Below, one piece after another: positions 23,541 to 64,000 of a stretch of 64,000 nt of DNA. The notes beneath the pieces were generated by a model that ran no database searches, was not told the origin of the DNA, and was given only the letters and a program-made list of their open reading frames with translations. The stretch is from contig QPGO01000022.1 of NCBI GenBank assembly GCA_008632985.1, positions 1-64,000 on the forward strand. Reading direction: 5' to 3'. Numbering within the stretch: position 1 is the stretch's first letter; each line of letters starts with the position of its first letter. A program made the position numbers and the translations under genes. The stretch is from Psammoneis japonica. Lineage: Eukaryota.

Positions 23541-23582
23541 GCTAGCTAGAGAGAGCTAGCTAGAGAGAGCTAGCTAGAGAGA
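23541..23582. repeat. Tandem repeat (GCTAGCTAGAGAGA)x3 at the gene/repeat compartment boundary
   Basis: Three exact 14-bp copies read directly from the sequence. Confidence 0.95.
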
Positions 23583-24549
23583 CTGCTCCTCTCTCCGACA
23601 AAGTTGATGTCTGACGTTTTCATCATGTTTGGAGTGGACATGGCTCCACTGGCACCATCAATGCCTTCTCCCAAACCCAAAGCTGGGCGGCAGCAGGGCA
23701 AGGGGGGGCGGGAGGGAGCAACAAGCCATGCCACTGCACCGTGCTGCAGGGCTGCTGTGTGCCCCGTCTGTGTTGAGCCTGGAGTGAGAACAAACCATGG
23801 AGAAAACAGAGCACAAACAAAACAGGTCAGATCCACAGCATGTTCAATGTGTGTGTGTGGGTTACCCAACCAGCAACAAGCCACCTCAAACAAGCTCAGT
23901 GCTGGTGCTCTGTGCTGAGAACAGTGGTGGTTGCGCCGCCGCAAAAGGGGGCCTGACAAGGAGACAGGCAGAGTCAACCACAATGATCCAGGGTCCTGTC
24001 ATGTGCCACTCTCTGGCAATGTGGACCCTTTGCACATTGTTCTTGCTTCTCCTGGAGCAGGGGTGATGGCTTTGCCATGCACACCTCTGGTGATGCGCTG
24101 CGCGCAAACAGCCCAGCACACATGAGGCAAGCTGAGTGCCGCTTCAGCGCTGCCTTGAGATCACATGCAAAGAGTGGCTGCTCTCCTTGTGCAACTCTGA
24201 GCATTTCATGCATGGGCACAAAACATTGCCACTGGGCCAGAAAAACACCTGCTCATGTGGCTGTGCAGGCCCAGGTTGATGCCCCAACGGCACTTGACAT
24301 CACAGCGGCAGGATTTGTTGCTGAGACAAACCAGAGCTCTGCACATGCACAAACATTGCAACCTGAAAGCACCTCTTCCCTGGGAGGATGACACTGCCTC
24401 AGAAGCACCACTCAAGTGGTTTCAAGCAAAAGCCCATAGAAACATGAGCTCAGGCCCCCCAGAGCTGTGTTGCAAAAGAAGAGCTGCCACCCAAATGAGC
24501 AGCAACTTGAGAGATTTTCAACCCATGGCTGGTTGGAGTTGAGGGTCAC

Positions 24550-24880
24550 TTGAACAAACTCACCAAAGTTGACAAATCCACCAAAGTTTGCAAAGTTGCC
24601 AAAGCTGGCAAAGTCACCAAAAGCTGAGACAAAATTTGCAAAATGGTCAAAGTCTCCAAAGTTGACAAAGTCACCAAAGCAACCAAAGTTGACAAAGTCA
24701 TTGAAGTCAACAACAATCATTGTGCCAAACTTGCCAAAAATGACAAAGTTCTTGCCAAAGCTGACAAAGTTGCAGAAGAAGTCCACAAATTTAAATTTGA
24801 CAAAATCAACAAACTCACCCTCAAAGTGATGAAATTGCCCAAGTTGACAAAGTTGGCAAGCTTGCCAAAGTTGACAAAAC
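24550..24880. repeat. Degenerate 9-bp minisatellite (CCAAAGTTG / ACAAAGTCA-type units)
   Basis: Visible 9-nt periodicity, which produces spurious (PKL/TKS)n ORFs. Confidence 0.85.
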
Positions 24881-24926
24881 ACCCACATCCACTGTCTAAC
24901 AACCAGCTTGCAGATTTGCTGAAGCA

Positions 24927-26870
24927 CAAAAAAAAAACAAATCTGCTTTTTAAGTGCCATCACTCCATTGTCAGCTGTGCCGATGCCGGCCAACCCACAC
25001 TTCTGGCACACTGAGCCAGTGCGGCAGAAGGAAAAAAGGGACTGGCCAGCTGGGGCATCACCAGACAGTGATGCCCTTCCAAAATAACTGGCAATGGAAT
25101 GTGTGCCACAAAGCGCAAGGTGCTTTGCTTCTTTGATGCTGGCTTCAAGGCTGGGCTTGATCATTGACACCCAGTTCATAATCTGTGACGTGCCGTGTGA
25201 CATGTGACCCTCCAACAAATCCATGAGATCTGCTCCATCCTTTGCAAGATGTTCTTGCCTCTTGTCACAAACAGCAGTGAGTTCTGCTTCTGCTGTGCAT
25301 TGTTGTGAAGATGTGTGTGAATCCAAATCATGTCTGTGAACTTGTTTGTTGTGTCTTTCCCACAGCTCCCACCACGACCACCATGCATGTGATCCGATTT
25401 GAACTGCCCACACTGGGGGAGGTTGATTTTCTTTACAACATTGCTCAGGCAAGCCTGACTCCCGTAAATGAATCTCTTGAAACGTGTTCCATGGGGAGGA
25501 ATGCCGGCCGTTAAAAATCTGTCGCCATCCAATGCTGGTCTGGGCCTGCCATGACAACCAGAGCATGGGGGGAGCGTCTGCAGCCCACATCATCTTGTCA
25601 TGGAACCACTTCTCTAAAGACAAAAGGAGGAGATCCCGAAGAGGAGGCATTGTGTCAATCTCATCACAGCACTTCCGCAAACCTTGGAGAAAGGTGCGTC
25701 TCCAGTCCTTGTGGTTGGGACATCATAGAATGTGATCTAGATCCTCCATTGGACTCTTGCAAGATCAGCAATGGTGAGGACAGACATGGTCACACCTGTG
25801 GGTTGTCTTGTTGGCAGGTGACAGCTCGTAAATCAACTTGACCGTAGATGCGTGCTGTTTGAAAAACCATTTGACAAGAGCCGCATGTGCGTCCCAATCC
25901 ATCTGTGACGTGACGGCATCGTCCCATTGGTTTCTCTCTTGCATGTGCAGCATGAGAGCGGGTGCCGTCGTTGCACACTGGACCAAGGATTTGAGACCAG
26001 CTGTCACTGCACCATCTGAAAGAGAAAAGTGAGCTTGGCAGTGTGGGAAAGGCAGGACAGCAGTGGTGTCCTCCAAGATCTGTTGTTGATGCTGGCCAGC
26101 CAACTCATCTGCACAGACATTTACTTTGACATTCAAAGGCAACAATTTGATGGAATCATGACAGTCTTGATGGCCTTTAACCCATTTAACTGGAGGCACT
26201 TGAATGGCAGAGGAGGAGTCCAACATCTCTGCAATTTCCGCAGAAGTCTGTGGCATCTCATTTGCCACGTCCCAGTCCAATGATGACACATTGGCACCAT
26301 GATGATGCATGATGTAGTCCTTGTCTTGATTGTCATGGGTGATGGGGTCTGTGGATGGACAGGAAGAATGCAGTCTCTGCAGAACCTTAACCAAGGCTTT
26401 GTTGTCACACCAATTGTCCATGCCTTGACAATGGGACACTTTGCTGTGCTCAAAGAAATGAAACAGAAACCACAGAATCGACAGAACACCGCATGCCTCT
26501 GAACAGCAAGATGAAGGTGACCTGCCAAACACAGGGCCCGCACAGTCAACCAGCGGAGCACCCTGGATTGTTGTGGTCCATCCAAAGGCAGCCTGCTGGT
26601 GGAGAACTGAGCTGTCACTGCTGGCAGTGAGATGATCAGTCAGCAATGAATCAATCAGAGAGTTGATGGGCACATGAAAAATCATGTCTCTAAATGGAGC
26701 TGCTTCCCACCTGGGCAGTGCTGGAGATGGTCCAGGAAAAAATCTGGGAGAGGGAGTGGCATTTCAAGGGCAAGTCCCACGCAATGCGGTGTAAATTGCC
26801 AGTGGCCCTGATGTGAAGTGCACATTTTGATGGGGAATGATTCATCAGACGGCAATGGAACAGTCTCTAA
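24927..26870 (-). mobile_element. 3' fragment of an Ambal-like non-LTR retrotransposon (RNase H region, C-terminus and 3' end), hypermutated
   Basis: 'AAFGW...CAGPVFG', 'WCDNKALV', 'KWVKGHQD' and 'NVCADELA'; collinear with about 48120-50055; both copies end GCACTTAAAAA followed by a T-run. Confidence 0.85.
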
Positions 26871-26871
26871 G

Positions 26872-28120
26872 AGATTCTGCTGCGATCGCCTGTCACAGCT
26901 ACATTGACCGTGTGCTTCGCTCACACGGATGGTTGCACCCCGCCTCGGATGAATCTGTTTCAGATTTTATGGCTGCTCCTGTGCCTGTTGACTCCATCTC
27001 CAAATTATGTTCAGACATTGGTCCAGAGGAAGGAACCCCGGAATTTGCTGAACTGGCAGAAGCCCAAGGTTTTGGGCATCGAAATCTCCTTGGAGAACTC
27101 CTGTGTGCTCACGTCATTTGTCACCTGGACATCGGACATGCTGTCACTGCCCTTTCAAAGTTTGCATTGCACCTGGCTCCAGTTCACTGCCAGGCTCTGA
27201 AAGGTGTTGCAAAGCATCTCCGGCGCATGAAACACTGGGGCATCAACCATCGCAAGCCCTCCAAGGACACCAGTTTGCCCCCTTGTCCGTTTGAACAACT
27301 TGAAGCGGACCCATCCCTGCCTCCCTTCCCTGCTCCTGATTCATTGATGCATTTGCGGGCTTTTTTGGATGCGGCCTGTGGGAATGATTTGCGCAACTGC
27401 CGCCCCACTGCAGGACATGCTTGCGTCTTGGTGGGCGCTGCCATTGCATGCCGATGTAAGACACAGACGGTGACTGCCACACCAGCTCAACGGAGGCGGA
27501 GTTTTGTGCTGCCAGCGCCACTGCAAAGTTGGTTCTGCACCTTCGTTTGGTTCCATGTGAGCTTGGATTCCCTCAAGACTCACCAACTCCCTTGCACATT
27601 GACAATGAGTCGGCCATCAAGATCGTCAACAACCGCATCCTGACTGAGCGTGCTTGCCACATTGACATCCAGTGGTTTGCTCTCCAAGACTGGAAGGAGG
27701 CTGGCCACATTGTCACACGACATGTCCCTGGCATTGTCAACCCAAGCAATGACCTCACCAAGGCTCTTGGGTTGATGCTCCACGCCCACCATGCCCGTCG
27801 GATGATGGAACACTGCCATTGACACTCCTCCTGGCATCTGCTGAATTGCCCTTTTTTACATTGTGTTGTCTGACTCTTTTTTGAATCATCCAGTTTGCCC
27901 CATGTTCCCTTCTCTCTTTTGAGACTGTCTTCCCTTTTTTTGTGTTTCGTGATCTACATTGTCCAGATTCGAGACATGCCAGATCAGGGGAGGGTGTCAG
28001 CTTGCCCTGTGCAGAATGCATGGTCAGACTGTGTGCGGATGATGGGTCAGACTCTTTTTAGACAGTCGAGATGATCTCTCTGGGATCTTCTCTCACTCTT
28101 TCTTGCTGGTGCACGTGTCA
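26872..28120 (+). mobile_element. Ty1/Copia relic: RT C-terminus, RNase H, PPT (27986-27994) and start of 3' LTR (TG at 27995; right end uncertain)
   Basis: 'HRNLLGELLCAHVICHLDIGHAV', 'STEAEF', 'DNESAIKI', 'HIDIQWFALQDW' and 'NPSNDLTKAL'; AGGGGAGGG followed by TGTCAG. Confidence 0.88.
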
Positions 28121-28289
28121 TTCACTGTTGCCAGTTTGCAGGGAGCTCTTTAGCTTGTCACTCTTACCACATGGGCATTCTGTCAGGTTATGAGACCAAT
28201 CAGCACCAACAAGATGCTTTGCCATGCCCACCAATGCGGCCGAGTTGCTGATTTCAGGAGCCACGTGATCAATTGCATCCACCACCACA

Positions 28290-28701
28290 TCTCTGACTGT
28301 GCCACATCTCTGATTGCAGTTTCTTCGACAGACACCAATCACTCCAAAATGGGCAACAGCGGAAGTGCCTGTGTGCCCTTGAGCAGCAACAGCACAAGCT
28401 TTTTCAACTCACTTGCCAGTTCCAACAAGAGCTCATCTTCATGGGGTTGTTGTCATTTCATTGCAATCATGGCAAGACAGGGCATCAACTTTTGGAGAGC
28501 ATCATTGGCTCCCATGCTGTGCGCCACGACTGCGAAGTGCTTCACAGCATCCACCTTGGCTTTGGTCTGTCCTGTTTCGATTTGAGACTTGAACAAATCA
28601 AAAGAAGTCATGTCCTCCAACTCATCCACACCCTGAGGCATGGACTGTGCCAGAGCAATGGATGGAGTTGGAGAATCTGACACATCTGAAGATGATGACA
28701 T
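28290..28701 (-). pseudogene. 5' fragment of PP2A scaffold subunit A (HEAT repeats)
   Basis: 'AHSMGANDALQKLMPCL', 'EDELLLELASEL' and 'LLPILE*LVSVEETAIRD' resemble the PR65/A N-terminus (DEVLLALAEQL; LE.LA.VEETVVRD); in-frame stops present. Confidence 0.7.
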
Positions 28702-30043
28702 GGTTGTTGTTGCTTTGTGTTGTTGCTGTGAGAGCAAGAACGGTGTGTTGCATGTTGTCAGCGACTGTTGGCATCAGTTGCACGTGATTTCTGCATGAGC
28801 GTGACATCACATTCGTGATTGGGGCGGTCTTTTGAAGAATCAATGGACAGACGAATGCAATGACAAGCTTCAGATGCTGACAAAGTGCAACATTCCGGGT
28901 TCACAATGCCCTCATGTGAACATTTCACAATGAAATGACCACTGACGACAACCAGGTGGTGTCTGCCCTTTGCTTCCATTCTGCCGGCATCTGCCGGCAT
29001 CTATGGTGTCTTCACAACATTTCACGGCAACTGTGACAGGAAGCAGGGAAAAAAGGAGACGAGTGAAAAAAGGTGGCAATGTCCATTGAATTGGACAACA
29101 GGCAAAGCAGCCCAGTTTGTCTCCTTTCTCTACGTAGAGTGAGCATGGTTCAGTCCAGAGTTTAGTGTGCCTTTGTTGAGAACAAAAGCAAAGTTTAGTT
29201 TGACTTCTCAGAGCAGACTTTGTTGCTAGAATTTATTCTGCCTCTAGCTTCACCTGAAATTGTGATGCACCACAATCTTTTTCTTTCTTGTTTACAGCAT
29301 GTGTGGCATCTGGCTCAATCTCTTTTCTCGTCATGAAATGTGGGGACACAAAAGCAGTCCTCACATGCCGGTGTTCTCATTTCTTGTTTTCAAACAAAAC
29401 AAAACTCTTCCTTGTCCTTGTGCACAGCACAAAAACTCTGTTTGGCAGCCTCGATGGCTTTCTGAGCCTTTGTCTTGAAGGACACAATCTTGCCGTGGTG
29501 CTTGAGGTCCTTGAAAAAGACGTGGGCCAAATCCGTTTGGAGGAGACGCCATGCCATGCAGGCTTCCACGTGCGAGGCCACGTGTGAATGCATCTCTTGA
29601 ATCAAGGAACGTGGTGTGACATCTGCTTGTTCTTCTGGAGCTGATTCCCAAACCAACTCTGACAATTCCAGAGACACATCCAACAAATCTCTCAAGGTTT
29701 GTTCGGACGCGGTTTGTGCCTTGGTCATTTTGGCAAAGAGCTTGATTGCGGCCGGCTCATTGGCAGGAGACGGGACACTGAAATGAACTTCCTTTTTGGC
29801 AATGCTGCAATGGCTGCTTCCCATTGGCGTCATGAACCTCACAGCGGTTGTTGCCGTTGGATTTGTGCTCTGCCTTGTGGATCTGTCCAACATGACAATG
29901 GCCTTTTTCTTCAAACTCGAGAAAGGTCCCACTGCAAGGGAAGGCTTTGCTTCAGGTGCATCATCAGTGTTCTCATTCAAGTCGACAGTGGCCAAGCAAT
30001 GGCGAGAAAAGGACTGTGCTGACAAGAACCACAGATGAACGTT

Positions 30044-30404
30044 TGTGGGAAAGTGGCCAGAATTCTGGGATTCGTCTGCACTTTCAGCGATTAAAAGCTG
30101 CAAATGTGACACAACAATCAACCAGCAACTTTGTTGTGCCAAAAGTTGAGAGGTGACAATCAGCACATTAGAAAGATTGTGAGCAGTTTTGTGAGCAGTT
30201 TTATGAGCAGATGCAGCTGCCAACCAAAAGAAACACGAAGTTAAACAAGCGCGAAGCCAGGAACAAACATCGCATTCGTGACTCGGCTTCCGCGGGATTC
30301 GAGACTGAGCATCGCACACGGGGTTCGAATCTTGGATCTCTGATTTGAATCGTGGAGGTCCGATGTTGTTGTGTAAAACATGCAAATGTGAGTGCATTGT
30401 CACA
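30044..30404 (-). repeat. 3' LTR of the Copia element
   Basis: TG...CA termini; aligns to 40321-40666; adjacent to the PPT. Confidence 0.9.
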
Positions 30405-32388
30405 CTCCCTTCAACAATGTTGGGTGGAATGATGACTCAAAAACGTCTTGCCACTTGAGGAGCGACTCCCTGTGATTGACAAAGAGATTCTGTGGCAGAG
30501 GTTTGGCAAAAATGTCTGCAATCTGATCCGCCGCATCAATTGGTGGGATTGATTTGAGACCTTTGCAAACATGGTCTTTAAAGTGGTGGAGAGTGAGGAT
30601 GAAGTGTTTTGTCCAAGGACGCATCTTGGGCAATCACGCGATCTCCAGTGCTCTGGAATTGTCTTCAAAAGCCTTGCAGTGTGTGACTGGTGTCTCTGAA
30701 GGGACATTGTGACCGTGACTCATAAATTCTTGAATGAGGTTCACAATCGGGATGGCGCTTCGAAGACTTTCTGAAAGAGCAACAAATTCAGCTTCAGCAG
30801 TGCTGAGCATGATCTGAGTCTGCAGCTTGGACGTCCAGACAATCTGACATCCTGCGCAGGTGATGACAAACCCAGTTCAAGATTTGGAAGTTCCGACGTC
30901 ATCGGGCACTGTCAGCTTGTTCCAATTGCCCACAAAGTCTGTGTCAGCGTGAACTTCAAGGGACTTGTCCATTGAGGGCTGCAGTGTGATGCCTTCAGTT
31001 CTGGTTGACCTAGGTGCTCACAGAGCCACAGCATTGTGCCTTGCGTGCAGGTGCCCCCGCGCGAACGTCGATTTTTTTCTGCAGTCGCTCCGCTCACCGC
31101 AGCGCACAAAAAAAGCACAAAAACGATGCCATGACAAACAAACTCAGTCAAATGAGAGCCAGCGGCAGCTTGTCGTGCTCCCACGTCCCTTGGGCAATGG
31201 CTCCAAGTTGCCATGATGACATTGTGTCACAAGATTCATCAACAGTGTCTCCAGAGCAGGACCCATCAAGAGAACGGACCAAAGTTCTGACGCACACCGC
31301 AACCAAGCCGACACCACCGTCAATCCCTGCACCCGATCACATTCCTGTGCTACCTCAGAAGCCACTGCTGCCTCCAAAACAGAACAAGCTCACAAGAAGG
31401 ACTTGCTGGGCACTGTCACAAAGCCAAGGGGAAAGAAGGTTGCCCCCTGCACAAATGCAGTCGTGCTGGCGAACAAGCGCATTGAAAAGTTGGAGAAGAC
31501 TTTGGTGGAAAAGCACAACAGCCATGGACACTTGGAGGAAGCAGCGGCCACATCTGTTGATTCCATGCACAACAATGTGAAGTCCATGCACAGCAGTCTC
31601 TTGTCAAAATGGCCCAGTCAAAGGCAACGCTTCAAAACAAGTTCTACGAAAAAGAACACCGCGGTTGAGCAGTCACGACGAGACAAGAAGGAGCTGGAGA
31701 GCATGGAAAAGGATTTGAAGAGAAAAAATTGCCAAATCGAGTCATTGAAACAGCAGCTTGTAGCAGCCAAAGAATCCAACAGGAAGATCAAGAGCTCCAG
31801 CAACAATGCCTTGCAGGACGACGTGCATGAAAGGAAGAAACAAGCGAGCCTGTTGCGTGTCGAAGAATTCAGGGTAAAAGAGCAAATCAAAGTTGATTCA
31901 AAAAAGCAGGAGAAGAAGAATGCTTTAGATGCAAAGAAGGAATGCATGCAATCACTGCATGCTTCCAATGGGCAGTTCGTTGCGAGCATCACATCATTGC
32001 TTTGCTGCATTCACGCATCTTTCACATCTTTAACATCTTTTTGATTTCTTTGACTCCACTCACTGGCCTTTTCTCTTCTCCCTCAAAAAGCTTGGCTCCG
32101 GGTGTCCAATGCCACATGGTCAAAGGCAGTCTGATGATTCCCATTGCCAAGAACAAACAAGGTGTCATGGTCGATCCCGCAATTGATGCCACAGCAGCAG
32201 TGTGTGGTCACTCGAGAGGACACAGGAGCAGAGGCCGCAGCCGCTCTTGCCACAGTCCAAGCTCTGGCAACAGTGAGAGTGACCACAGTGATTTCCATCA
32301 CTGCCACAATTGTTCTTGCTCTTGCTGCCATGGCAGTCACTCTCACAGTTGCTCTTGCTCTCACCGCCGTCACAGCATTTCTCGCCAA

Positions 32389-32568
32389 GGTGAGAGCAGT
32401 GGCTCCAGCGACAGGGAGCACAGTCGTTCTTGCAGTGTCTCTCACCATGGTGAGAGCACTCGCGCCAGTGACAGGGAGCACAGTTGCTCTGACAGTGTCT
32501 CTCACCGTGGTGAGAGCACTCGCGCCAGTGATGGGGAATGCAGTTGCTCTGACAGTGTCTCTCTCCAC
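32389..32568. repeat. Three 60-bp tandem repeats within a Ser/Arg/His-rich cargo ORF of the transposon
   Basis: Units beginning GGTGAGAGCA at 32389, 32449 and 32509. Confidence 0.9.
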
Positions 32569-33488
32569 AATCAAAGTTGGTCTGGCCGAAGCATGGGTGA
32601 TCAAGAAGAGAGGCACCGTGTCACTGCTTCCAGTGGCTGCAAAGATGATCGCCACTGCAACCAAAACCAACCTCCCAGCTCCTCCTCCCATGATTGTCGC
32701 AGCTCCCATGGATGCGATGGAGGGTGTGATGGAGGACATGAGGAAGAGCCCATGCACTCTGATGAAAACAGCATGCAGGAGAAGGAGAACACCCATCCTG
32801 ACGGCAAGGAGAATTCCTTTCAAAATGGTGTGGGGCCACATTCCTTCCCCAGTCCTCCAAAGAATCGTCCTGCATTGACTGCACCATCCTTCTCATTGTC
32901 CAACAAGTCTGAAAGTTTGCAAGTCTGCAAGGATGTTGCTTCGAACAATGCTTCTGTTGGACGCGAAGGCATGGATGTTTGAAGACGATTTCTGCAGATG
33001 TTGAAACTCCTGCGTGAACCCACTTGATGCTTTTGAAACCAATCAAGACTCTCTGTGCTGGCAGGTGACTGTGCTTGCATCTTGTCACCATTGTGCTGTT
33101 CAGGTGTCTCAATCTAGACCCAACTCCGTCAGTTGTAGATCTGTCACTGAAAATTGCATTGTCCCTTGTGCTTTCTCGTGCAATGGTGCTCCGCAAAAAG
33201 TTAGTTTCATGTTCAAATGCCTGGCACCATGAACAACACATGCCCACTCTGTTCTCGCAAGACATTGTTTTAAAGGATGGGAAACCGACGATGCTCACAT
33301 CTTGCGCATTTTGTGGCTCTCGCCGGGGCAAAAGTCTAACTGCCACATTTTTTGGATCCAACATCGCAGCGGCAAAGTGGCACCGGGATCTTGTACACAT
33401 CCTCCGCATCCGAATGATTGGCTAAAAAACTTTTTGCCATTTGCGACTCTGCATCATGTGCCTGGGGCCTGGAAGTTTCAATTGCATC

Positions 33489-52912: not shown

Positions 52913-52924
52913 ACATTTCTTTCA

Positions 52925-54422
52925 TCACAGCTTTTGAGAAAACCATGTTCCTTCATGGCTTTTCCAGACAACTTCAAAGGAGTTCGAGAGCGACCCATGA
53001 GATTCAAGACAAGCTGGTGATGAGGAAGATTCGCTCCCACAGCAGACAGTCATTTGATTGCGCTCCAGCATCTGGGCACAACGCGACTGAAAATCTTTTT
53101 CAAGCTGCTGAAATTACAACGAGAAAAGAGGACAATGACACAGCAATTGACAAAGAACAGTGTCGGCTGTGCACAAGTTGACAGATGAAAAAGGCCAGGC
53201 TTGCTTCCAGGGGCAGACCGGAGTGCAAACAACAGTTGTGGGTGCAGCCACTGGCACAGAGAATTGCATTCTCCATGTCAACAGTTTCCATCCCAACGAT
53301 GCATCCTTTCAGCAAGGGTTTGTGAGTGTCTTGAAGAGGGTTCTGCCACAGAAATGTGAGTGAATGTGCCATGTGGCAACTCCCGCCTCGCATTCCCGTG
53401 CGCTGCTTTTTCAAAAATGGACAATGCAAGCTTTCCAAACCTTGATGCCTCGCTCAATTTCCCAAGTGAGCACTGCACGACTCCATGCTGAGTGAAGGCA
53501 AATGAAGACAGATTTTGTCTCCCTGTTGTGCAGCGTGTGCTTCATTGAATGAAGCAACAGAACAACAAACAAAGTGCTTTTCTTGACCAGAACGCGCACC
53601 GAGCAATCAAAATGATCGCCTTCATTGCGCCAATCTTGTGATCGTCCGTCATTTGTGACAGAGAGAGAAGGTCATCATCGTCTGACTTGCGCACCATTTT
53701 CTTCACTTTTATGTTGTCATGCAAGACATGTGGCATGGATGGTCTCTCGGGTGTGATTTCTCCCAGCTGGGAGAGCAGCTCAAGACAAATTTTAACAGCT
53801 TCGTCACACTTTCTCTGGTTGGCAGAGAGGGACTCTATGATGGCAAAATGCGCAGGGACCTCATCGTCAAGAGATCGAGCATTTGACAGCACCTTGTCTG
53901 ACATGAGTCTGCTCAGTTCAATGTTCCCATTTCTTAGCTCCATTTCAGCCGAAGCACTGTGTGGCTTCAAGTTCAAGTTGTGCTCTTCGTTCCAACTGTT
54001 CTTCTGGTCTTTCAGCAGTGCAATGCCACATTGGAGGTGTTCTGCGCTGGCACAAAAGCGAATGTGCCCATTGCAATCTTGGCGGCTTCTAGGTTCAGCT
54101 TGGTTAATTATGTTTTGGCGTTGTCAGATGAGATGCACCTCGAACCAAGGTTTAATCGATGCGCAGCAATGACCAGCAACACCTCCTTTGATCCTTTGTA
54201 AGAGGCACTGCTGTGCCATATTGTTTTGTCAATCTCAAGATGTAACTTGTCCTTTTCGTCCCCGCCAGCCCCGAGCGAATAAGCGGCTTGTTGGATACGA
54301 TCATGCGAGAACTGACATCTCTTATTAGACACCTTTTCAATGAGTCCCTCATTACCGGTAGATGCCAAGACGAGGGTTTTTATTATCTCTTCCTCCGAAT
54401 TGTGTCCATCAGATTCCGCCAT
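52925..54422 (-). pseudogene. C-terminal part of an AAA-ATPase/TPR-like protein (related to bacterial kinase-ATPase sensor proteins)
   Basis: 'QFSHDRIQQAAYSL', 'LHLEI', 'AHRLNLG' and a downstream helical region; stops and frameshifts present. Confidence 0.75.
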
Positions 54423-54634
54423 GTCTTAATGATTCATGACGGGCACTTGGAGGTCAACGTCAAAAGTCAAAAAGAGGCATGCCGCATTTTTGAGAAGGCA
54501 CTGCCCCTCAGAAGCAAGACGTTTGATTCTTGCACAAACCACGTCGACGACGTCGTCTGAGGCATTCGTTTCTGCCACAATGCGATCAATATTGCAGCTC
54601 CAATCATAAGATATGAGAGAAAATGATATTAAAT

Positions 54635-55611
54635 CATCGCACTACAGCATTAATGGACAATAACCAAACGTCGCTGCATCCTTCCAATCCACCATTCTTC
54701 TTTGGCACGGCACCACCAAACAGCACGGCACCACCATCTTGTACGGTACATAGACAAGGCGAAGCACGAGGACACGGAGCATCATTGGTCATTTCGACAC
54801 GTGTCTATTCCCATATGGGCGTATCTAACACAAACACCTCGTTGGACATGGTCCCATCTTGTGCGGCTCCGCACGTTACCAGTAACTTGTTTTTCGATAT
54901 CAACGTGGCGCCATGCAAACCACGTGGTGAGGGGGCGTCACCCGTTGTATAGACACGCCACTGCCCTTTTCATTTACAGTAGTCACGACAAGAACGTGAT
55001 TGGTACAGCGATGAGTGTGCAACAAAACGCAGTCGTCATGCAAAGCAACCGCGACATCACGACTCGTAGGTCCGTCGGGTAGTTTGATGTTGCTTTCCAG
55101 CGTATTCCATTGGCTTCCATCCTCTAATTGCACGATATCGTCTAGAATTATTCCATCAGTCCCTGGTGTTTGTGGATCCCAACCACCAAACAGGGTGGGC
55201 TTGTTTCGTAAAATTGAGCAGGCAGACGCCAACCGTGGGTTGGGAGCATCACTGTTTTTTTTTGTGGAATCCAACCTTGATTGCTACTCCACTTCCACAA
55301 ATCATTCTTGACGTATGAGTTATAGCATCGCCGTTTGCTTCTTTTTCTTCCACGTATCCGCCAAAGACGTACAAGTCGCCTTGATTTGTCGTAAAAGAAA
55401 CGTGTCCGGATCGGGATGGAGTGATTTTTGCACTCCTCTTGGAAAGATCTATCCACTCGGCCTTGTAGCTCGTTGCTAAACTCTCAACTTCTAGCATCGT
55501 TATAAAGAACAAGAATACAAGTGTGTAGCTTAACTGTGATATACAGTGGCGACTCATTATCCTGTTTTGTGTTGTTCTTGTTGACATTACTTGTGACAGC
55601 AGCAGCAACAA
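54635..55611 (-). pseudogene. Kelch-repeat protein gene copy, frameshifted, TpA-retaining
   Basis: 'PSRSGHVS...LYVFGGY', 'NDLWKW', 'TLFGGWD', 'PRGLHGA' and 'VLFGGA...DVWLL'. Confidence 0.8.
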
Positions 55612-55815
55612 AACAACGCAACAAAAGAGAAGAATTCTCCGCCGACCTCACTTTTTTTTCAAGTGTGAGAAAAAAATTTGCTCAATGTGGGTTTATACAT
55701 ATGTCCAGTCATTATAGGTCTGAATGAAACATGTGGAAAAAAAAAATTTTTGACCGGGCAGAATCGGGCGAAAATGGGGAAAAAATCTGCCAAAATCTTT
55801 TTTTCGAAAAAAAAG

Positions 55816-55933
55816 ATATATATACATATATACTTATATATATATATATATTCAACTATCTATAGACAGTCTATAGATAGTCTATAGACAGTCTATAGAC
55901 AGTCTATAGACAGTCTATAGACAGTCTATAGAC
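55816..55933. repeat. (TA)n-rich tract followed by about 7 copies of an 11-bp unit with palindromic core GTCTATAGAC
   Basis: Read directly; exact palindromes start at 55880, 55891, 55902, 55913 and 55924. Confidence 0.95.
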
Positions 55934-56549
55934 ATTCATCTATTATTTATTAATGACTAAATATATGTATAACTTTTTTTTCGATTCTCAAAAATCTGTC
56001 GACATCTTTTGTTCGGAAAAGAATTATATACATATTCGGTCATTTTAAAAAATTATCAACTGTTGACCAACTATAGTGTTGATCACAACCATTTTTTTTT
56101 CGTGAAACGAAAAAAAGAAAAGAAAACACCAACAAACCAACAAAAAGACGACGACCAACGAAGCAACGGAGATGTATCCAGATTATTCTACAGTATGTAA
56201 AAAGTCGTCGTCAAGTTGCAACATCCAAGTTTCCAAACGAGGTTGTTGTCTGTCCACACAATCGCTCCTTCCACCCAGTCACAATCATGGACAGGCACTG
56301 GCCAAGAATTGGTTGGACGAAAGGTTGCTTGCGACTTGCGACTTTGGCAAGTCCCTCTCGTTGAATGGAGACGAGGCGATAATTCTTGCGATTGGAGACA
56401 CGACAAATGTGACCGTGCAAACCGTGATGATGGTGTTTTTCTGTTTGAGTGCGACTCCGCTTCGGACCGTTGGGTTCTTCTTGCTGGCGATGTTCCTGGA
56501 TTTTCGTGCGGCTCTCGGACACAGGAGACGTTGTTGCTTTCGGAGCTTA

Positions 56550-57150
56550 ACGACGCTCGAGTGCGAGAATGCCAAGACTGCTACTCCACCGTGGCGGAAG
56601 CCAAGGGCATGGCCTACCGAAACATACATGCTGATTCGGGCCATTTACGGATGCGTAGTGCGACCCCTAATGTTGCCGAGTCGGTTGCTTTTACCCTCGT
56701 GGACTTTGTGGCCACGGATGGGGGCGTGCAGGTTGCTATTTTTGTCAGAGCCATGGTCGAAATAGTACCCCGCACTGCGAGGATCCATCTTGCCCAAGTT
56801 ATTGGGTTTCATCGAGGACATTTCTTCTAGCGTATGCCTCTGGGTATTGTGTGAATACATGGATACGGAGGAAACTTTGAAACTTTTTCGGAACAGCCAG
56901 GTCCGACCCCATTCTTGATCTCCAAAGAAGAGAATCACAAAGAGAATCACGAAGAAGAAGAGGCTCCCAAAATGAATACCAAGAACGTTGTGTTGGCCGA
57001 TGGTACTTCTGCAATCCAGACTGTTTACTCCGAAGCTGCTCGTCCTGACGAGTCGGATAATACTCCTCATCTGCGCAAAATGGTGATTGGTGGTGACGTC
57101 TTCTTGCGAACCATTCTTGCTTCCCGCCTCACCAAGTTGTGTTTGATGGC
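56550..57150 (+). pseudogene. Internal fragment of coatomer beta subunit (beta-COP)
   Basis: 'VAESVAFTLVDF', 'CLWVLCEY', 'VLADGTSAIQT' (compare VLADGTYATQS) and 'LRKMVIGGDVFLRTILASRLTKL'. Confidence 0.8.
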
Positions 57151-59039
57151 TATCTGGTACGGATCTTCCTCAAATACCTTGTTCATTAGTTGAGACTATC
57201 GACTCCTCGTCGCGGCAATTTCGGCACTCCACGAAAAGTTGGATGATCCATTGTTTGTTAAACGGATCATAGTATTAGGTGGTTCTTTAGAGGTACGATT
57301 GTATTGCTCTTAGTATTTTACTGTATTTTTCTTTATGATAGCGGTCGAGGATTGTAGAGTACCGGCATGGCATGTCCTTTGGGAAGAAGAAAGATAATCT
57401 TAATGCGTTACAGCATTGGGTTGAGCGCGTACTCGCACTAACTTACTTTCAAATCGAGCGAGCTCTTTTGAAACTCAACCACACCTCTCCCACCCACAAA
57501 GCAACGCGCAAGACGACGAACGGAACGATCGCCAAGCAAATGATTTACGAAATTACATGATTCGTCTACTGCACGATGACGACTTTAATAAGTTTGTTGA
57601 TGATATGGAGCATAGCATAACCTCGGCGGACGATGGTGGAGCGGAAATATTGAGAGCACTTCGCCGGGCTGAAACGTAGAGCATTCATTGATCCGAAACC
57701 GTACTTTTCTGACAAACCTCGACTCGAGGATAAATCATCGAATCAGTCCTTAGGCTAAAGATCCATATCCATGAGTGTGTGAAAAGTATCCTCTTTCTTG
57801 TCTTGAAGAAGGTGGACAACGTCTTCGAGAAAAATCGTTTCTTGACTTGATGATTGTTTCCCTTTTCTAGTCGCTGACAAGATACGATCCAAGCAACTCT
57901 GTACTTCATGAGATCGAACTGACGATTGAGCAGCCATTGGCAGTGAAATCCAGTCATGAATCGTGACTCCTCTTCGTTCCATGCACGGTCTTTGAGTGAC
58001 ACTTCCTGGTTTGCAAGGGAACTCTATTTCCATTCACTCTGATGGACCGCCAGCACTCACCACAATAATCGGTTTGTATCGAGCCTCTCCAACACTTCTG
58101 AAGGTGCCCCACGTGTTCACCAAACGTGGGGCACTTCTGTTCACAAAGTGAAACCCAGGAGTAACAGACACTCTTGCATGTCCTTGCCCAGATTGGCGTT
58201 GTTGATTTTGAAGTGGCCTTTCAATGAAATTGGGAGACAGGCAAAGCAGCAGGTTCTTGGGGTTGGGATCTTCTGGCTCTCAATCATTGATTGATTCACT
58301 GAGGGCCCAAAGAACAAAGAATGAGCACGACATCCCCGAAAAGCACCTTGTGACGCTTGTGCTTTCATGCCACTTCTCACGTTCATAAGAGCATCTTCGA
58401 AGACTTTTCATGATGAGAGTGACACGGCTTGCAAAAGGCCGCATCAACCATCAGTTTCAACTGCCCAAGCCAAGATGCAGTGAGCAAGCAAAGAGCCATG
58501 GACAAATCATTCACCCCAAAGCAGCACTCATCCCATGCAGCCATTGTCACTGTGTCCCATGCCAAAAGCTTCACGCAGAGGTTTGGCAGCAGCCAACACA
58601 CCATGGGAGGTGACTGCAGAAGGGCAAAGCCACATCCCGTTCACTCCTGTCCCCCTCAAGTTTAATCACATTGAAGGAAAATTTTTGTGGTGAGAAACTT
58701 GCCACCCAGTTCAGTGTCTTGTGCAGAACAAATGTTTTCCAGCAATGCTGCCACTTCTCATGGCCAGATGCATCATTTGGTCGGAGAAAACTCAACGGCA
58801 TTTCATGAACATCTCTGTGTTGTGAAAGCACTGGAACCAAGGTTGCTGCAGCTGGAAACCCAGAGAAGAGCATCGGTGGCTGAAGTTGTCAGATTGTCAC
58901 TCATGACAATGAGAATTGATGGATGCCACATCTCCAGATTGTCCGCAACATGTTGAACTCCGCATTTTTGTGGAAGTCAACAGCAACAATGCTTCAGACC
59001 TTTGCATTGAGACTGAGACTTTTCTCCCAACTTGCTCAT

Positions 59040-59800
59040 TGGAAACCAATTCACCTGACGCTGTTGGCAGTGAGGATCACTTCTTAGAGTCTTTGACAGC
59101 TGTTGGCTGCTGCTTTGATGCACTGACCAGGAAGCAGGTTGCTGTCCACAAACGATGCATTGTGTGGAAGCTTGCACTCTGGAGAAAAGGGGCTCAGCTC
59201 TTTCTTGGCTTGGCAATGATTGACTTGTCATCACATGCTACTCCAGCTCTGTGATCAATGCAAGAAGGAATTGAAGGGTGGAGCACGGTCTGCCTTGAGG
59301 AAGGTGTTGAATGGCGATGTCGCGTTGAACACTCCAATGGTCGTTCTCTGCATCAGTCAAGATTTCTCTGCCAGTCCTTCTCTGGAATCAAAGGCAGAGC
59401 TTGCCAAGGGTTGGTGCTGCACTCCATTCAAGCTCTGTTGGATCTGCGCCTCACTCAGTGGGGTTTGGGATTTGCTGCTGGCACTTGTCTACAATGCGCT
59501 TTCATTGTGCTGTGACCCCAATGACCTGGTTGCCTTCAAGAGAGACCATCTTCACGTCTGTCTCATGCACCTTGGTCTCATGTTTCAACAGAGTGCAGTG
59601 CTTGTTCACTTTGTGCTTGCTCATCAATTTGTGGGTTGTGGATGCCAAGTCAGGAGCCTTCAAGCTGCCAATTCCCACACCTTGTGTAAAGTGCATGCCT
59701 TGTCTCATTCTGGGACCAGCAAGAATGAATCACAAAAGAAACAAAAGCTGGGTTCCTTGCAAGAGGATGTTGCAACTGCTGGTGGAGGCAATTGAAAGCA
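59040..59800 (+). pseudogene. BRCA2: Hypermutated fragment of the BRCA2 helical and OB1 domains
   Basis: 'VHKRCIVWKLA' (compare NHYRWIVWKLA), 'LLQLCDQCKKELKGGARSALRKVLNGD...PMVVLCIS' and 'ELAKGWC' (compare ELTDGWY). Confidence 0.78.
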
Positions 59801-60759
59801 ATTTCCACATTCACAATCATTTGTGGACTGACAAGCAATGCTTGTCTCTCGAATGTTTCTTGCCTGCTTCTTAACTTGCACCATGCCACGAAAACAAATC
59901 AAAGAAAGTTCCGCTGCGAAATTTTTGACTGGCAGACTTTTACAATTGGCAAAATCACAGCTGTGCATCTGATGGTCATAAGAAAATTTTTTGTGCCAGC
60001 CATGTGTCTCTGTTGGGAGCGCCTCTGTTGTCATCCAATTTGTGCTTCACAAAAAACAACTCCAATTTTGGCACTGCTTTGACAGTGGTTTTGGAGAACT
60101 CTTTTGCGCTTCCCAGTCTTGAATGTTCAGCTGAGCAGTCCCAGGAAGGAGTGTCCTGGACTCAGCAATTTCCACTGCGGACACATTCAGCCATCATTTC
60201 TCATGATCTGGGGTGGTGCATTGCTTTGTCCCATGAGAGCATGTTGGGATCCTTGTTCTTGCAAGTGGCAGCCTTGCAGACCTGGGGAGCAGTCACAGAA
60301 ATGGAGCACCCGTGATTGAGCCTGTGCTGTGCATGGAGGCAGCTGTCAAAGTGTGCCAAGCAGCCACATCCCTTGGATCCATCATGCCTGTGCCACTGCA
60401 GAGGAGCATGAGATCAAGTCGAACACATGGGAGGAGGAGTGGCAGGCATTTCCTTGCTCCCTCTCTTGGCTGGGTTCATGAGAGAGAGGCTCTGGGGAGT
60501 GGAGGGCTCCAACAGAGGGCTGGTCTTCACACTGGGTGGTGTCTGTGGGGCTGTCCCCCTCTGAGGCAAGTCTGGCATGAGAGGACCTGGAGAAGGCTCC
60601 ACCTGTGGCAGAGATGAAACTGAAGGGGCTGGCAACACCACAGAACTGTGTGTTGGCGTGCTGCAGGTGGGGTGGGAGGCACTTGGGCCACCAGAGAAAC
60701 TGCACTGGTGGAAGAAGGCGTGGTGAGCAGCCATGACTCTGTGGTGGCACAAACCTTGC

Positions 60760-63700
60760 ACATTTGCCAAGACAACACTCATCATGTTCTTGGGAAGGAT
60801 CAGCTTCAGCACCAAGAATCTCAAGAGCCTCTGCCTTCATGCAGAGCAAGCAGCAGGGAGCGCTGATGTGCTTTGCACGTGGAGACAGTTTTGCCATTTT
60901 TGCAAAGTTGAGGCATGCTTGAGGTCAGACTGTCCTTGCACACAATCAAAGTTGGGATCTTGCCTTCTTTTGCATCTGAAAATGCTCTAGATTTGGCAGC
61001 AGCATCAGGTGTCTTGCAGTTCTTGCACCCAAATGTGTGAGTCTGAAATCCTTTCAAAATTTCATGAACTGGAGTTAAGTTGATGTGCATCGCAGCCAAT
61101 GGAGCCAGCCTCTGCACAGCAGAAAGCATGACCTGCATCTGCAGCATGAAGACCCACAGAACAGGACACTCATGACCCAAGATGACATGCACCCAGTGCA
61201 AGACTAGATGCCAACCAGGTCCACAGGGTCATTGTGTGTGAAAAATCATGGGGCCAGCAGATCAATTGTTTGATTCAGAGGATTGATCCCTGCTGCCTGC
61301 TGATTTTTTGTTTTTGCATTCAAGCAGTCTCTTGTTGTCACCACCGTGCAACAATGATTTCTCTGACTGTGTTTCCAAGGGGCCAACAGGAAAAAATTGG
61401 TGCTGCAATTTTTTGCACAGGTGCATTGCTGAGGCCAAGCAAGGGTGGTTCACATGTGAGCTGCTTTGCATGTTGGAGAGACTGGCAGAGGTGATTTTCA
61501 ATGCATTTTGTGGTGTGTGTGTTGCCGTGTGCTTTGTTGCAGCCAAGGGAGTGCCCCACTTAAAAGCATTTTTGTGGTCATCACTCGAAGCAAGTAATTT
61601 CACAGCAAAAAAGTCAATCTTCTGGCACACACAGACAATCTGCTGACAAGCCCAAGTTTCCCATGGCCATGCAGACTGGCAAAATCAGCACCAACAAAGC
61701 AGCCAGTCCATTTGTTGTCACCAGGGCATGAACAGAGTCCCTTGTCCCCAGCACCTTGCAAATGCCATGAAACATGATTTTTTTTTTACCTCAACCATGT
61801 GGGAGTGCTTGGGAGTGTCAGAGAAATGGGCTGCTTGATGAGATGCATCAACACACCAACAAAGGAATGGTGATCCCAGCTCTTGTTGAATTTGGCTCCT
61901 TTTCATCTTTGTGACATGAAGCAGTGGCACATGGAGTGGAGGCTGACCTGCAATTTTCTGCAACAGCTGTCTTGAGAACCTTCTTGTCAAGCCAGACTGG
62001 GTGAGCAGGACTCCTTGGGGGCATTGCAGTCTTGCAAATCTTGATGCCAAGAAAATCAACAAGTTCTTGCTTGTTTTGCAACTCAAACACATGATGTTGT
62101 TTCTCATCTTGCAGCCACCCCCAGGGCTTTGATCCTTTGTTCTTTCCAGCATGAACAGCATTGTCAACACAGACCACTCGAATCATCTCATCCTTGAAGA
62201 ACAGGCATGGTTGACTTGTGACTGAGTCCACAACATTCGAGATTTGTTTTGACGACACTCTGAAGCTTGTCCTCAAGCACCAGAGATGTCCAGACTGGAG
62301 AGCAGCCAGCGTTCTTGTGGAACATCTCATCATCAAAAAAGCACTCCTGATCAGTGGGTGGCTGTGTGCACACCTCAACAAAATCATTGTCATCACTCAG
62401 TTCCATCAAATTGGCAAGTTCAAAAGGCAGAGTGGGTGCATCATTCTTGTCTCTGTCTGAGTGCACCACCAACTCACATTTGAGCTGTGTCATGCCTTGG
62501 GAGAGCAGCACTGGATGAGCACACTGTGGGCAACAGGTCAACTCAGTCATCAAGAGCAGAGACAACATTTTGAGTCTGCCAAGAGCATGGGGAGTTAAAG
62601 GGCTGAAAAGGGTGGGGAAGAGTGTGGCCAGCCACCATGCAATGGAGCAATTTTGCACACAATGACATCCCCATGGCAGGGATGGCAACACAGGGTGGGC
62701 ACACGTTTGAACAGGCAGACATGGTGGGGTGAGAATCCTCAGCAGAGATGCCACAGGCAAAGATGGTGTGAGCTTGGGGCCCCACCAGGTGGCGGTCTGG
62801 TGCCAGATTTGGCTTGGACATGGCATCAATGCAGTGCTGCTCAGTGGCAGGGAGAGCAGAATTGTCAAAGGGGGCACCAACTGGCTTGTGCTGTGGGGGG
62901 TCTTTGTTGGGGAACATGACACCAGCATTGTCCCAAGAGAAGTTGCCACAGCTGCCAAAGCAATGCTGCAGTCACCAGCATCTTCAAGCTCAACAGTCTT
63001 GACTGCAATCTTGGTGAGCTCCCTCTGAGATGCAGGAGCTGGCTTGCAGAAGCCTTTTGCAGTTGGTGCAGCCAGCAGAGGATGGATCCTTGACTTGCAG
63101 GACAATGAAGCCCAGTTCACACTGGTTCCTTGCCGCCAACAGGAGCATCCCTGGGCAAGTCAGTTGGATCGGAGGCAGTCTGGGTGGCCAGCCCAAGTGG
63201 GTGCCTGAGCACAGGTCATTGATGGTTGATGGAGGTGAGGTCACCCACAAGCTGCTCTTGCTTGGACAGCTTGTGAGCATGGTCCAGTTTCCTGTGATTT
63301 GTGCATGTCATGTCCCTGTGACACCAGTGTGTTTGAAAGAGTGCACTTTTCACAGAAACAGGTCAAACCAGACTTGCTCACAATGGGCTTAGAGGGATCC
63401 ACCAGATGGGCACAACAACGGGGCTTCTTGGTGTGAGCAACTCCTTGGGTTTGGCTCTTGTTTCTCAGCAGGGGAAGTTTCAATGGCAGCAGCACATGTC
63501 ATTGATGCTGGCACTTTTTTTCTTTTGCTGTTGTTGTTCACATGCTTGGAACACTTGCATGGGGCTGTGCCAGCCCACCCAGTGGCATGTTGTGGCTCCA
63601 CAGGAGTGGTGGGCACTGCTGCAATCAGATTTGGAGGCATTGTGGCTCTGAGGGGGCTCAGTCAAGAAGCTGAGCCAATCCTCATCAGCATTCAGAAGAT

Positions 63701-64000
63701 GCTGGTGACTGTTTGAGAGGCAATGTCACTGCAGGCGGTGGGTGTGCTTCACAAAACATGCGGTTGAATGAAGAAGGAGTGACAGAACCTCAAGTCACTG
63801 AGGGGCTCAGGAAAGAGCACGTAGAAACAATGTGTTGCATGTCTGACACACTTTGTGATTGGGCAAAAGCTGCTCCCGGATGGGACGAAGTGCCGTTTGC
63901 TGCAGACAAAAGGCGCAACAATTACTTTGCTTCCAAACTTTGCGACAAATTTGGTCTCAACCGTGTCAACAAGAACGGCAAGCAGGCACAACTGTTTGAG
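60760..64000 (-). mobile_element. Heavily degenerate Ty1/Copia relic (RNase H, RT and less certain upstream regions)
   Basis: 'KLSPRAKHISAP', 'CPVLWVFMLQMQVMLS', 'PCLFFKDEMIRVVCVDN' (YVDD position) and 'DFLGIKI'. Extent beyond about 62.3 kb is tentative. Confidence 0.7.

Follow-up and report, generated by a model that had tools for sequence, protein, structure and literature searches.

The genome of the diatom Psammoneis japonica contains transposon-filled DNA that is almost free of the dinucleotide TpA. The window analyzed here is the whole stretch of 64,000 nucleotides (nt) at positions 1 to 64,000 of contig QPGO01000022.1 (assembly GCA_008632985.1). Two blocks of it, at 23,583–54,090 and 58,160–64,000, carry Copia and long interspersed nuclear element (LINE) retrotransposons and other repeats, and in both blocks TpA is nearly absent while CpA and TpG abound. 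A mutational process that acts in place, is specific for TpA, uses both DNA strands and operates after the elements have integrated very probably exists. Its specificity, polarity, use of both strands, post-integration timing and independence from CpG decay are established by paired copies, encoded proteins and related loci. The best explanation of the findings as a whole is that an enzyme guided by chromatin edits TpA in DNA, a reading that we consider to have about an even chance of being correct.

Composition of the window

Observed-to-expected ratios (o/e) of dinucleotides were computed in 2-kb steps along the window. The host gene block (1–23,582) has a normal composition and provides an internal control, with a TA o/e of 0.44–0.66 and a CG o/e of 0.83–1.13 in the 2-kb windows of positions 1–24,000. 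Every 2-kb window of 24,001–54,000 and 58,001–64,000 has a TA o/e of 0.03–0.13 and a CG o/e of 0.10–0.62, and the CA and TG ratios rise to 1.49–2.08 and 1.53–1.97, about 1.7 times the expectation overall. There are 845 TA dinucleotides in 23.6 kb of normal DNA (35.8 per kb) versus 190 in 36.3 kb of TA-poor DNA (5.24 per kb), and the CG density is 60.4 versus 22.4 per kb. A preliminary description of the window, made from the letters alone, had reported that TA almost vanishes and CA and TG abound from about 23.6 kb, unlike in the gene block, with decay of CpG to TpG and CpA alongside, and these counts bear out both statements. Of the 127 overlapping 1-kb windows that cover the whole window, 71 have a TA o/e below 0.25. 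The G+C content of TA-poor windows (0.43–0.52) is the same as that of the gene block, because the computed gain from TA loss (+0.031) and the computed drop from CpG decay (-0.038) almost cancel. The asymmetry between CA and TG stays within +/-0.17 per 2 kb across the window, and no consistent transcription-strand signal was found when the local asymmetry was set against element orientation.

The first TA-poor domain (23,583–54,090) is CpG-poor and CA/TG-rich, with a TA o/e of 0.04–0.13; it contains decayed transposons, nested in one another, as well as short tandem repeats. The second (58,160–64,000) is the most decayed part (TA o/e 0.03–0.09, CG o/e 0.10–0.30) and continues beyond the end of the window. 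Between the two blocks lies an island of normal composition of about 4 kb (54,090–58,080), in which the TA o/e is 0.55–0.70 and the CG o/e 0.98–1.13. The signature had originally been assigned to the entire span 23,590–64,000, an assignment that holds for the two domains and fails for the island.

The left border of the first domain is abrupt. The final TA of the normal DNA stands at 23,575 and the following one at 23,863. A CTAG-rich simple repeat of about 14-nt units (23,521–23,581) lies exactly at this edge, and its many TA dinucleotides are intact. The border (about 23,582) is found approximately 185 nt past the end of the last spliced-RNA contig (23,397). TpA is as scarce in tandem repeats and throughout the inter-element DNA as in the elements themselves, and the domain is unbroken across several unrelated elements. 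The signature is limited to mobile DNA, since the domain contains Copia, LINE and other repeats and the adjoining host genes are spared.

Direction and specificity of the change

The direction of the change can be read from copies of one repeat of about 1 kb. Its TA-poor copies are at 51,351–52,901 and 41,380–41,542, and an unmutated copy of normal composition lies in the island at 54,230–55,811, about 1.3 kb away from mutated copies; pairs recovered by self-BLAST are 76–81% identical. In a non-redundant table that counts each island position once, only 2 of the 35 island TA dinucleotides are kept in the TA-poor copy, and the others read CA (20), TG (11) or CG (2). The 44 island CG dinucleotides are kept in 15 cases and read CA in 15, TG in 12 and something else in 2. 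All remaining island dinucleotides are kept at 58–90%, and the lowest values belong to neighbors of TA or CG. Summed over five partly overlapping pairs, TA is replaced by TG or CA 51 times and the reverse is seen 0 times, and CG is replaced by TG or CA 39 times with 10 changes in reverse.

The same comparisons define the target. A-to-G changes affect 34 of 68 adenines that follow a 5' T, which is the maximum possible if each TA is hit once. The corresponding values are 11/195 (5.6%) after a 5' A, 12/135 (8.9%) after a 5' C and 6/127 (4.7%) after a 5' G, so that the context preference proposed as a check in the preliminary description proves to be strong. C-to-T changes occur at 27 of 86 cytosines before a 3' G and at 3–7% before other 3' bases. 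Transversions are rare.

Public sequencing data supply further pairs. The k-mer contigs of two public runs, X1 and X2, were compared with the window. A segment of a repeated element (29,222–30,016) has a paralogue in the X2 and X1 contigs that is about 92% alike, and sites that read TG or CA in the window are still TA or CG in this paralogue. The 15 listed differences comprise 9 in which the window has TG or CA against TA, 4 in which it has them against CG, and 2 others. Among 40 of the 319 differing rows, 25 of the 30 listed variants in the transposon blocks are of the TA/CG to TG/CA class. One 23-letter stretch exists in two versions that differ at five TA sites only, the TA version having a depth of 523 and the CA/TG version a depth of 37. 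Single-contig differences at a depth of about 60 in 24,400–28,000 fall on residual TA in 2 of the 8 listed cases (Poisson p 0.0017).

An open reading frame (ORF) at 29,390–30,436 on the minus strand, inside a repeat, has a weak Pfam match to an RNase II winged-helix domain (E 5.8e-8). The repeat is present in high copy number (X1 depth to about 1,400), and a paralogue about 92% alike is found at a depth of about 540 in X2, a run that behaves as RNA. Unmutated copies of the family appear to be expressed.

Effect on encoded proteins

The loss of TpA can be followed independently in two coding sequences. The Copia reverse-transcriptase ORF (35,154–36,101, minus strand; Pfam RVT_2, E 1.6e-26) has 0 Tyr in 315 amino acids (aa). 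Its motifs are altered accordingly: VYVDD reads HCVDD, NLYGQKQ reads NSCGQKQ, DYLG reads DCLG and GVNYFET reads AVNCFQT. The upstream part of the Copia pol, which includes the integrase region (36,102–37,406, minus strand; SH3_retrovirus, E 5e-6), continues in the same frame with one stop between and has 1 Tyr. A non-LTR (LINE) retrotransposon ORF (45,101–47,287, plus strand) has 1 Tyr in 729 aa. The lack of Tyr in the reverse transcriptase, its changed motifs, and the single Tyr in each of the integrase-part and LINE ORFs had all been noticed at the outset, and our counts agree.

For a quantitative test, the Copia pol (35,154–37,406, minus strand, with stops written as X) was aligned with 50 homologues, the best of which is 61% identical, and consensus positions were defined by at least 70% agreement. 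Only 1 of 17 consensus Tyr positions is kept, with 9 changed to Cys, 6 to His and 1 to Ser, versus 287 of 357 positions kept for other residues (p 2.7e-10). The other substitutions follow the pattern expected from TA or CG loss. All five Val-to-Ala changes are GCA codons, and both Ile-to-Thr changes are ACA codons. A T precedes all eight codons at which Ile changed to Val (4) or Thr to Ala (4). Eight of the 11 changed Arg positions became Gln, Cys, Trp, His or a stop. The occurrence of TAY-to-TGY and TAY-to-CAY changes side by side in one ORF indicates that both DNA strands are hit.

The ORF at 45,101–47,287 has no Pfam match of its own. It was assigned to the LINE class because, among its 55 homologues, which include Fragilaria crotonensis proteins, some carry RVT_1 (PF00078) and AP-endonuclease (PF03372) domains. 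Of its 15 consensus Tyr positions, a single one retains Tyr; 7 read Cys, 2 His and 5 other residues. Its overall Tyr content is 0.1%, versus 3.6% in the homologues. Nothing credible was found by Pfam in 24 further ORFs of the domains and the island at E values up to 0.5. In TA-poor DNA, TAA and TAG stops are gone and only TGA stops remain. As a result, long overlapping ORFs are found on both strands, for example at 31,900–33,000.

Timing of the change in related Copia elements

Metagenome contigs were scanned with a reverse-transcriptase alignment (A1), which yielded 79 loci and 765 windows of 1 kb. A TA o/e below 0.25 was found in 24 of these windows, and 23 of the 24 belong to L054/L062 and L065; across related loci the ratio is 0.31–0.85. 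L054 and L062 represent the same locus in two assemblies, at 99.93% identity. The TA-poor stretch of L062 (approximately 1,251–7,750) lies between two 238-nt long terminal repeats (LTRs) at 931–1,168 and 7,711–7,948. The two LTRs of one element are identical at integration. Those of L062 now differ at 18 positions, of which 13 have TA in the 5' LTR and TG or CA in the 3' LTR and 0 have the reverse. The mutations must therefore have occurred in place, after integration. The 5' LTR has 20 TA, the 3' LTR has 7, and the interior has almost none. Compared with a TA-normal relative that is 78% identical (L064), L062 keeps 8% of 62 TA sites, with 22 reading TG and 19 reading CA. The strand-symmetric A-to-G process at TpA that had been proposed for the repeat domain is thus upheld by the polarized copies, by the residue tests in two elements and by the LTR pair of a related locus.

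The two assemblies of this locus differ at six positions in 9,067 nt, five of them inside the TA-poor element and one in the 5.2 kb outside. Three of the inner differences are of the CpG/TpG-CpA type, one is TA/CA and one is other. The distribution hints at a faster change that may still continue within the element. A 1,160-aa ORF neighboring the TA-poor element of L054/L062/L065 has no Pfam match.

Signs of the process extend to other proteins. Three of the 50 aligned Copia homologues show partial conversion at consensus Tyr positions. P0122 has 4 Tyr, 11 Cys and 4 His over 22 covered positions; P0127 (ENA, 1,481 aa) has 11, 12 and 2 over 26; and P0166 has 15, 6 and 4 over 26. The excess of Cys over His in P0127 corresponds to a strong bias toward A-to-G changes of the coding strand in an element that is partway through conversion. 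Among the best 150 representatives of reverse-transcriptase relatives from a library of 1.84 billion proteins, the median Tyr content is 3.6%, and five have less than 1.5% Tyr with 8–10% Cys plus His. Each of the five is only 38–58% identical to any locus of the analysis, and they are therefore separate elements.

Sequence context of TpA loss

TpA sites are not lost uniformly. A context ratio was defined as the frequency of a tetranucleotide in TA-poor DNA divided by its frequency in normal DNA. ATAC/GTAT is erased (ratio 0; 150 in normal and 0 in TA-poor DNA), and it is followed by ATAT (0.008), GTAC (0.019) and ATAG/CTAT (0.049). Intermediate ratios are found for ATAA/TTAT (0.135), CTAC/GTAG (0.14), CTAG (0.19) and GTAA/TTAC (0.26), and the highest for CTAA/TTAG (0.33) and TTAA (0.50). 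The hierarchy is robust: RTAY (R, purine; Y, pyrimidine) is the erased class and YTAR the best surviving one. The TA left in the interior of L062 consists of 26 YTAR, 12 mixed and 0 RTAY sites.

Some comparisons also show a choice of strand. In paired copies of the window, the choice favors a pyrimidine 3' of the A (25/40 versus 9/28, p 0.026), and changes pooled over five proteins are 45 Tyr-to-Cys and 18 Tyr-to-His. No bias toward a 3' pyrimidine was found between L062 and L064, and for this reason a per-strand motif is not claimed.

Relation to CpG decay and targeting

Within the window, CpG decay and TA loss have common borders. The two are nevertheless separate processes that can be separated in both directions. 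L062 is saturated for TA loss at a CpG o/e of about 0.9, and four related Copia loci (L044, L050, L068 and L072) have a CpG o/e of 0.34–0.42 at a TA o/e of 0.50–0.61. The independence of TA loss from CpG decay follows from these two opposite cases. The four loci are natural controls in which methylation-type decay alone leaves TpA in place. The computed rate of TA loss in the window is about 1.9–2.7 times that of CpG loss.

Repetition alone does not appear to dictate the fate of a copy. Unmutated versions dominate the reads for at least one repeat family. Their escape would be due either to a later arrival of the unmutated copies or to a chromatin state that guides the process. In the diatom Phaeodactylum tricornutum, H3K9me2/3 together with H3K27me3 marks mostly Copia elements, most of them untranscribed (PMC4504042).

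Proposed mechanism and alternative explanations

We propose the following sequence of events. The transposon-filled regions 23,583–54,090 and 58,160–64,000 were very probably mutated at the DNA level after the elements integrated. Either strand is hit, and TpA becomes TpG or CpA, an A-to-G change read on one strand or the other. Conversion proceeds nearly to saturation and ends some tens to a few hundred bases from the neighboring genes. It prefers RTAY, spares YTAR, and runs faster than the co-occurring but separate CpG decay, itself the usual signature of 5-methylcytosine deamination. A putative deaminase, similar in kind to those acting on tRNA adenosine and directed to silent chromatin, may convert the adenine of TpA to hypoxanthine, which would pair with C at the following replication. 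Each TpA would be hit once, as the product TG/CA would no longer be a target. The outcome is inactivation through missense and loss of signals: Cys or His codons replace Tyr codons, ATA, TTA, CTA and GTA codons are altered, and TATA-type motifs are lost, as is every TAA or TAG stop.

Position A34, the substrate of tRNA adenosine deaminases, comes after an invariant U33, so a preference for TpA matches the native context of this enzyme family. Adenine deamination is favored by this context, by the pure transition spectrum, by the single-hit logic, and by a rate above that of methyl-CpG decay. As the chemistry of the process, enzymatic deamination of adenine to hypoxanthine is our leading candidate, with a probability that we would place a little under one half.

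Several points weigh against an enzymatic, chromatin-guided adenine deamination. TpA is self-complementary, and chemistry on its T or on its A would be expected to leave an identical footprint, which sequence cannot separate. Most eukaryotic ADAT2/3 substrates are purine-rich at position 35, which does not match the RTAY preference. Chromatin targeting is suggested solely by the sharp borders and the co-located CpG decay, and a more recent insertion would be enough to account for the normal island. L062 has a spared 5' LTR next to a saturated interior, an offset that no simple domain model predicts. Finally, the X1 run may not be wholly independent support, as its platform is unrecorded and its sample is perhaps that of the assembly itself.

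The strongest alternative to adenine deamination places the chemistry on the thymine. A TET/JBP-type dioxygenase would make 5-hydroxymethyluracil (5hmU) and further oxidized forms at TpA in silenced repeats, and their occasional pairing with G would yield T-to-C changes of either strand. The footprint, TA to CA or TG, would be the same as that of adenine deamination, and the palindrome-like RTAY would suit a mark placed on two strands. Dinoflagellates, members of the SAR group (stramenopiles, alveolates and Rhizaria), offer a precedent. Their TET/JBP homologues are described as making 5hmU after replication; the mark is enriched on repeats, inhibition de-represses transposons, and older work found T to be replaced preferentially in TA and TC dinucleotides (PMC11572971). 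TpC is, however, unaffected in P. japonica: 81% of the TC sites persist between the paired copies, and GAA/TTC and GGA/TCC occur in TA-poor DNA at 0.74–0.96 of their gene-block frequency. In addition, 5hmU or 5-formyluracil would have to mispair at a frequency sufficient for saturation. We consider thymine oxidation rather unlikely, though it deserves to be kept in view.

Error-prone repair was one of the mechanisms put forward in the preliminary description. A Pol eta-type polymerase, drawn by T:G mismatches at deaminated methyl-CpG, would produce WA-to-WG changes (W, A or T). Its hotspot includes TA, and it would account for the shared borders of CpG decay and TA loss in the window. The context data speak against it. 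ApA changes at the background level (11/195 versus 34/68 at TpA), and AAA, AAG, AAC and AAT are present in TA-poor DNA at 0.95–1.13 of their gene-block frequency. TA and CpG loss are uncoupled in the related loci, with L062 on one side and L044, L050, L068 and L072 on the other, and transversions are rare. These results disfavor the proposal, which we regard as very improbable. The spectrum is not that of WA mutagenesis, as the A-to-G rate at ApA (5.6%) is about that at GpA (4.7%) and AA trinucleotides are not depleted.

A sequencing or assembly artefact, in which a modified base of repeat chromatin is misread and TA is still present in the cell, has equally little in its favor. It would gain from the uncertainty over the platform and sample of X1. 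The contigs of this run nevertheless agree with the window at >99.8% in single-copy TA-poor DNA. One X1 contig spans the left border (19,305–24,620, 4 differences) and another covers single-copy TA-poor DNA (25,343–27,684, 5 differences), each at a word depth of about 60, and such contigs would presumably not arise from noisy long reads. X1 also has no difficulty in reading TA in flanks and paralogues. TA-poor elements also occur in two metagenome assemblies and in predicted proteins from several sources. A base that altered pairing in sequencing-by-synthesis would, moreover, be expected to become a fixed mutation at replication. We judge an artefact to be highly unlikely.

Editing before integration is scarcely credible. 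It would consist of A-to-I changes made on transposon RNA by an ADAR- or ADAT-like enzyme, or deamination of cDNA, copied into new insertions. Retroelements dominate the domain, and ADAR-type enzymes favor a U 5' of the edited A, as stated in the discussion of a preprint (10.64898/2026.01.13.699255). Changes of one strand would be expected, yet the single Copia pol contains 9 Tyr-to-Cys and 6 Tyr-to-His changes. The one-way LTR differences of L062 (13 versus 0), the equally TA-poor tandem repeats and inter-element DNA, and the continuity of the domain across elements argue against it as well.

An intrinsic composition, whether through codon or dinucleotide preference in TA-poor lineages or as a block of foreign DNA, is barely worth entertaining: UpA is avoided in many genomes and the TA o/e of the gene block is itself about 0.55, but the window and the reads contain paralogues whose TA content is normal, the elements have broken frames and lack conserved catalytic Tyr residues, non-coding DNA is equally affected, and relatives have a TA o/e of 0.31–0.85.

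Comparison with known systems

The closest known system is that of the chlorarachniophyte Bigelowiella natans, described from mutation-accumulation lines by Mettrop et al. (bioRxiv 10.64898/2026.01.13.699255). In an integrated giant virus and virophage, 230 of 231 mutations were A-to-G or T-to-C. All were at TpA, at a rate of about 6e-7 per site per generation, and they appeared in some lines only. The rate is about 1000-fold over background and episodic among lines. TpA-poor coding sequences of B. natans are enriched in reverse-transcriptase and DDE domains, and the authors propose an ADAT2-like deaminase. The terms CpG and diatom, as well as flanking context, are absent from the main text of the preprint.

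The process in B. natans resembles the one in P. japonica in its exclusive T/A-to-C/G transitions at TpA, which yield TpG or CpA. Foreign or mobile DNA is hit and host genes contrast sharply, and a long-term depletion of TpA is accompanied by a gain of CpA and TpG. The hosts differ, one being a rhizarian and the other a diatom (stramenopile). The extent differs too, with a Rho of 0.45 reported in the region of nucleocytoplasmic large DNA virus origin versus a TA o/e of 0.03–0.13 over >36 kb of nested retrotransposons here. The co-occurring CpG decay, the RTAY>YTAR hierarchy and the LTR-pair timing are added by the present analysis; a rate was measured only in B. natans.

Repeat-induced point mutation (RIP) of ascomycete fungi is similar in logic. 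Both are dinucleotide-specific transition hypermutation that inactivates transposons in place and leaves aberrant blocks beside normal genes. RIP changes C to T mostly at CpA and thereby creates TpA and stop codons (PMC2621366). In P. japonica the effect is the opposite: TpA is destroyed and TAA and TAG stops vanish, and TA in place of CA or TG occurs 0 times in the mutated copy, versus 51 replacements in the other direction. In RIP, duplication of a sequence is the trigger, and each copy of sufficient length is affected. A homology trigger of this kind is not evident in the window, where an unmutated copy, perhaps a later arrival, lies about 1.3 kb from mutated ones.

Decay of CpG to TpG or CpA, as expected from deamination of 5-methylcytosine in methylated transposons, is seen in the same domain, where 15 of 44 CpG are kept and C-to-T changes are found at 27 of 86 CpG sites. 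Unlike the process described here, it cannot remove TpA; the two are separable both ways, and TpA loss is 1.9–2.7 times faster. The 5hmU of dinoflagellates shares a post-replicative action at the DNA level on the T of TA, an enrichment on repeats, a role in transposon silencing and a SAR lineage. It is, however, described as an epigenetic mark and not as a mutational footprint, and TC is also preferred there and unaffected here. Animal deaminases (APOBEC on cDNA, ADAR on double-stranded RNA) likewise edit bases enzymatically against mobile elements. They act on single-stranded or RNA intermediates in a strand-specific manner before integration, whereas the changes in P. japonica involve both strands, in place, after integration.

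Genes and other features of the window

The host gene block (1–23,582) includes tubulin-chaperone-E-like, DnaJ and KH-domain genes and others identified by Pfam. The ORF at 15,889–17,550 (minus strand) is tubulin-chaperone-E-like, and its best named homologues are from the diatoms Thalassiosira, Discostella, Cylindrotheca and Skeletonema, at 40–61% identity. These matches point to a diatom host, as opposed to Bigelowiella, with no close sequenced relative among the proteins searched. No deaminase domain was found among the 6 gene-block ORFs scanned by Pfam.

The X2 run, which is listed as 'DNA?', behaves as RNA or a transcriptome, because three GT..AG or CT..AC intervals are spliced out of it and retained in X1. 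The intervals (18,208–18,278, 18,352–18,451 and 19,282–19,375; 69, 98 and 92 nt) are introns of gene-block genes. The spliced contigs of X2 cover the gene block up to 23,397. They leave 24,005–28,673 and 30,675–36,000 uncovered, a gap that is not usable as evidence of silence.

X1 contigs join position 31,011 to 35,082 with 23 other letters between. The intervening 4,070 nt, which include part of the Copia element, therefore represent an insertion into an older repeat, and this repeat is also present elsewhere in the genome without the insertion. In addition to the unmutated repeat copy, the island has a run of (TA)n that is followed by eight tandem units of 11 nt, rich in TA (55,804–55,950). 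An imperfect inverted repeat of 41 nt (76% complementary) encloses the run and the units, at 55,804–55,984. This stretch is intact although TA-free DNA is only 2 kb off. No terminal repeats flanking the island were found, and it may represent a gene, a young insertion or a stretch of protected chromatin.

Significance

The preliminary description knew of no account of such a process in diatoms. The process itself had already been documented, so far only in a 2026 preprint on the rhizarian alga B. natans. For diatoms the statement stands, as no report of TpA hypermutation in diatoms was found in the literature searched, subscription journals and bioRxiv supplements lying outside its scope. New here are the diatom host lineage, the saturated loss of TpA across transposon DNA that also shows CpG decay, the RTAY hierarchy, the proof of post-integration action and the signs of wider spread. 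Together, the saturation in a diatom, the metagenomic elements without CpG decay and the unrelated proteins suggest a widespread defense and not a one-species curiosity.

The TA-poor blocks have practical consequences. They mimic long ORFs and blunt domain searches, as in the case of the LINE that Pfam missed, and in diatom genomes they distort both the dating and the annotation of transposons. Comparative genomics can now look for deaminase or oxygenase genes whose distribution follows the signature. Any candidate enzyme is bound by two constraints, namely the RTAY>YTAR hierarchy and the in-place action on two strands. To our knowledge, deamination of adenine in DNA has not been described for any natural enzyme, and the adenine base editors of the laboratory depend on evolved TadA. 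Should the process in this diatom prove to rely on such an activity, its enzyme would be of biotechnological interest.

We tentatively suggest, as an idea that we think has appreciably less than an even chance, that diatoms, chlorarachniophytes and further microbial eukaryotes share an ancient TpA editor of integrated elements. It would be guided by silent chromatin, prefer RTAY, act on double-stranded DNA and proceed to saturation, and its core would be a DNA adenine deaminase or a mutator that oxidizes thymine. If this is true, eukaryotes at large would possess a counterpart to RIP whose chemistry runs the other way, and the system would amount to a naturally occurring A:T-to-G:C base editor.

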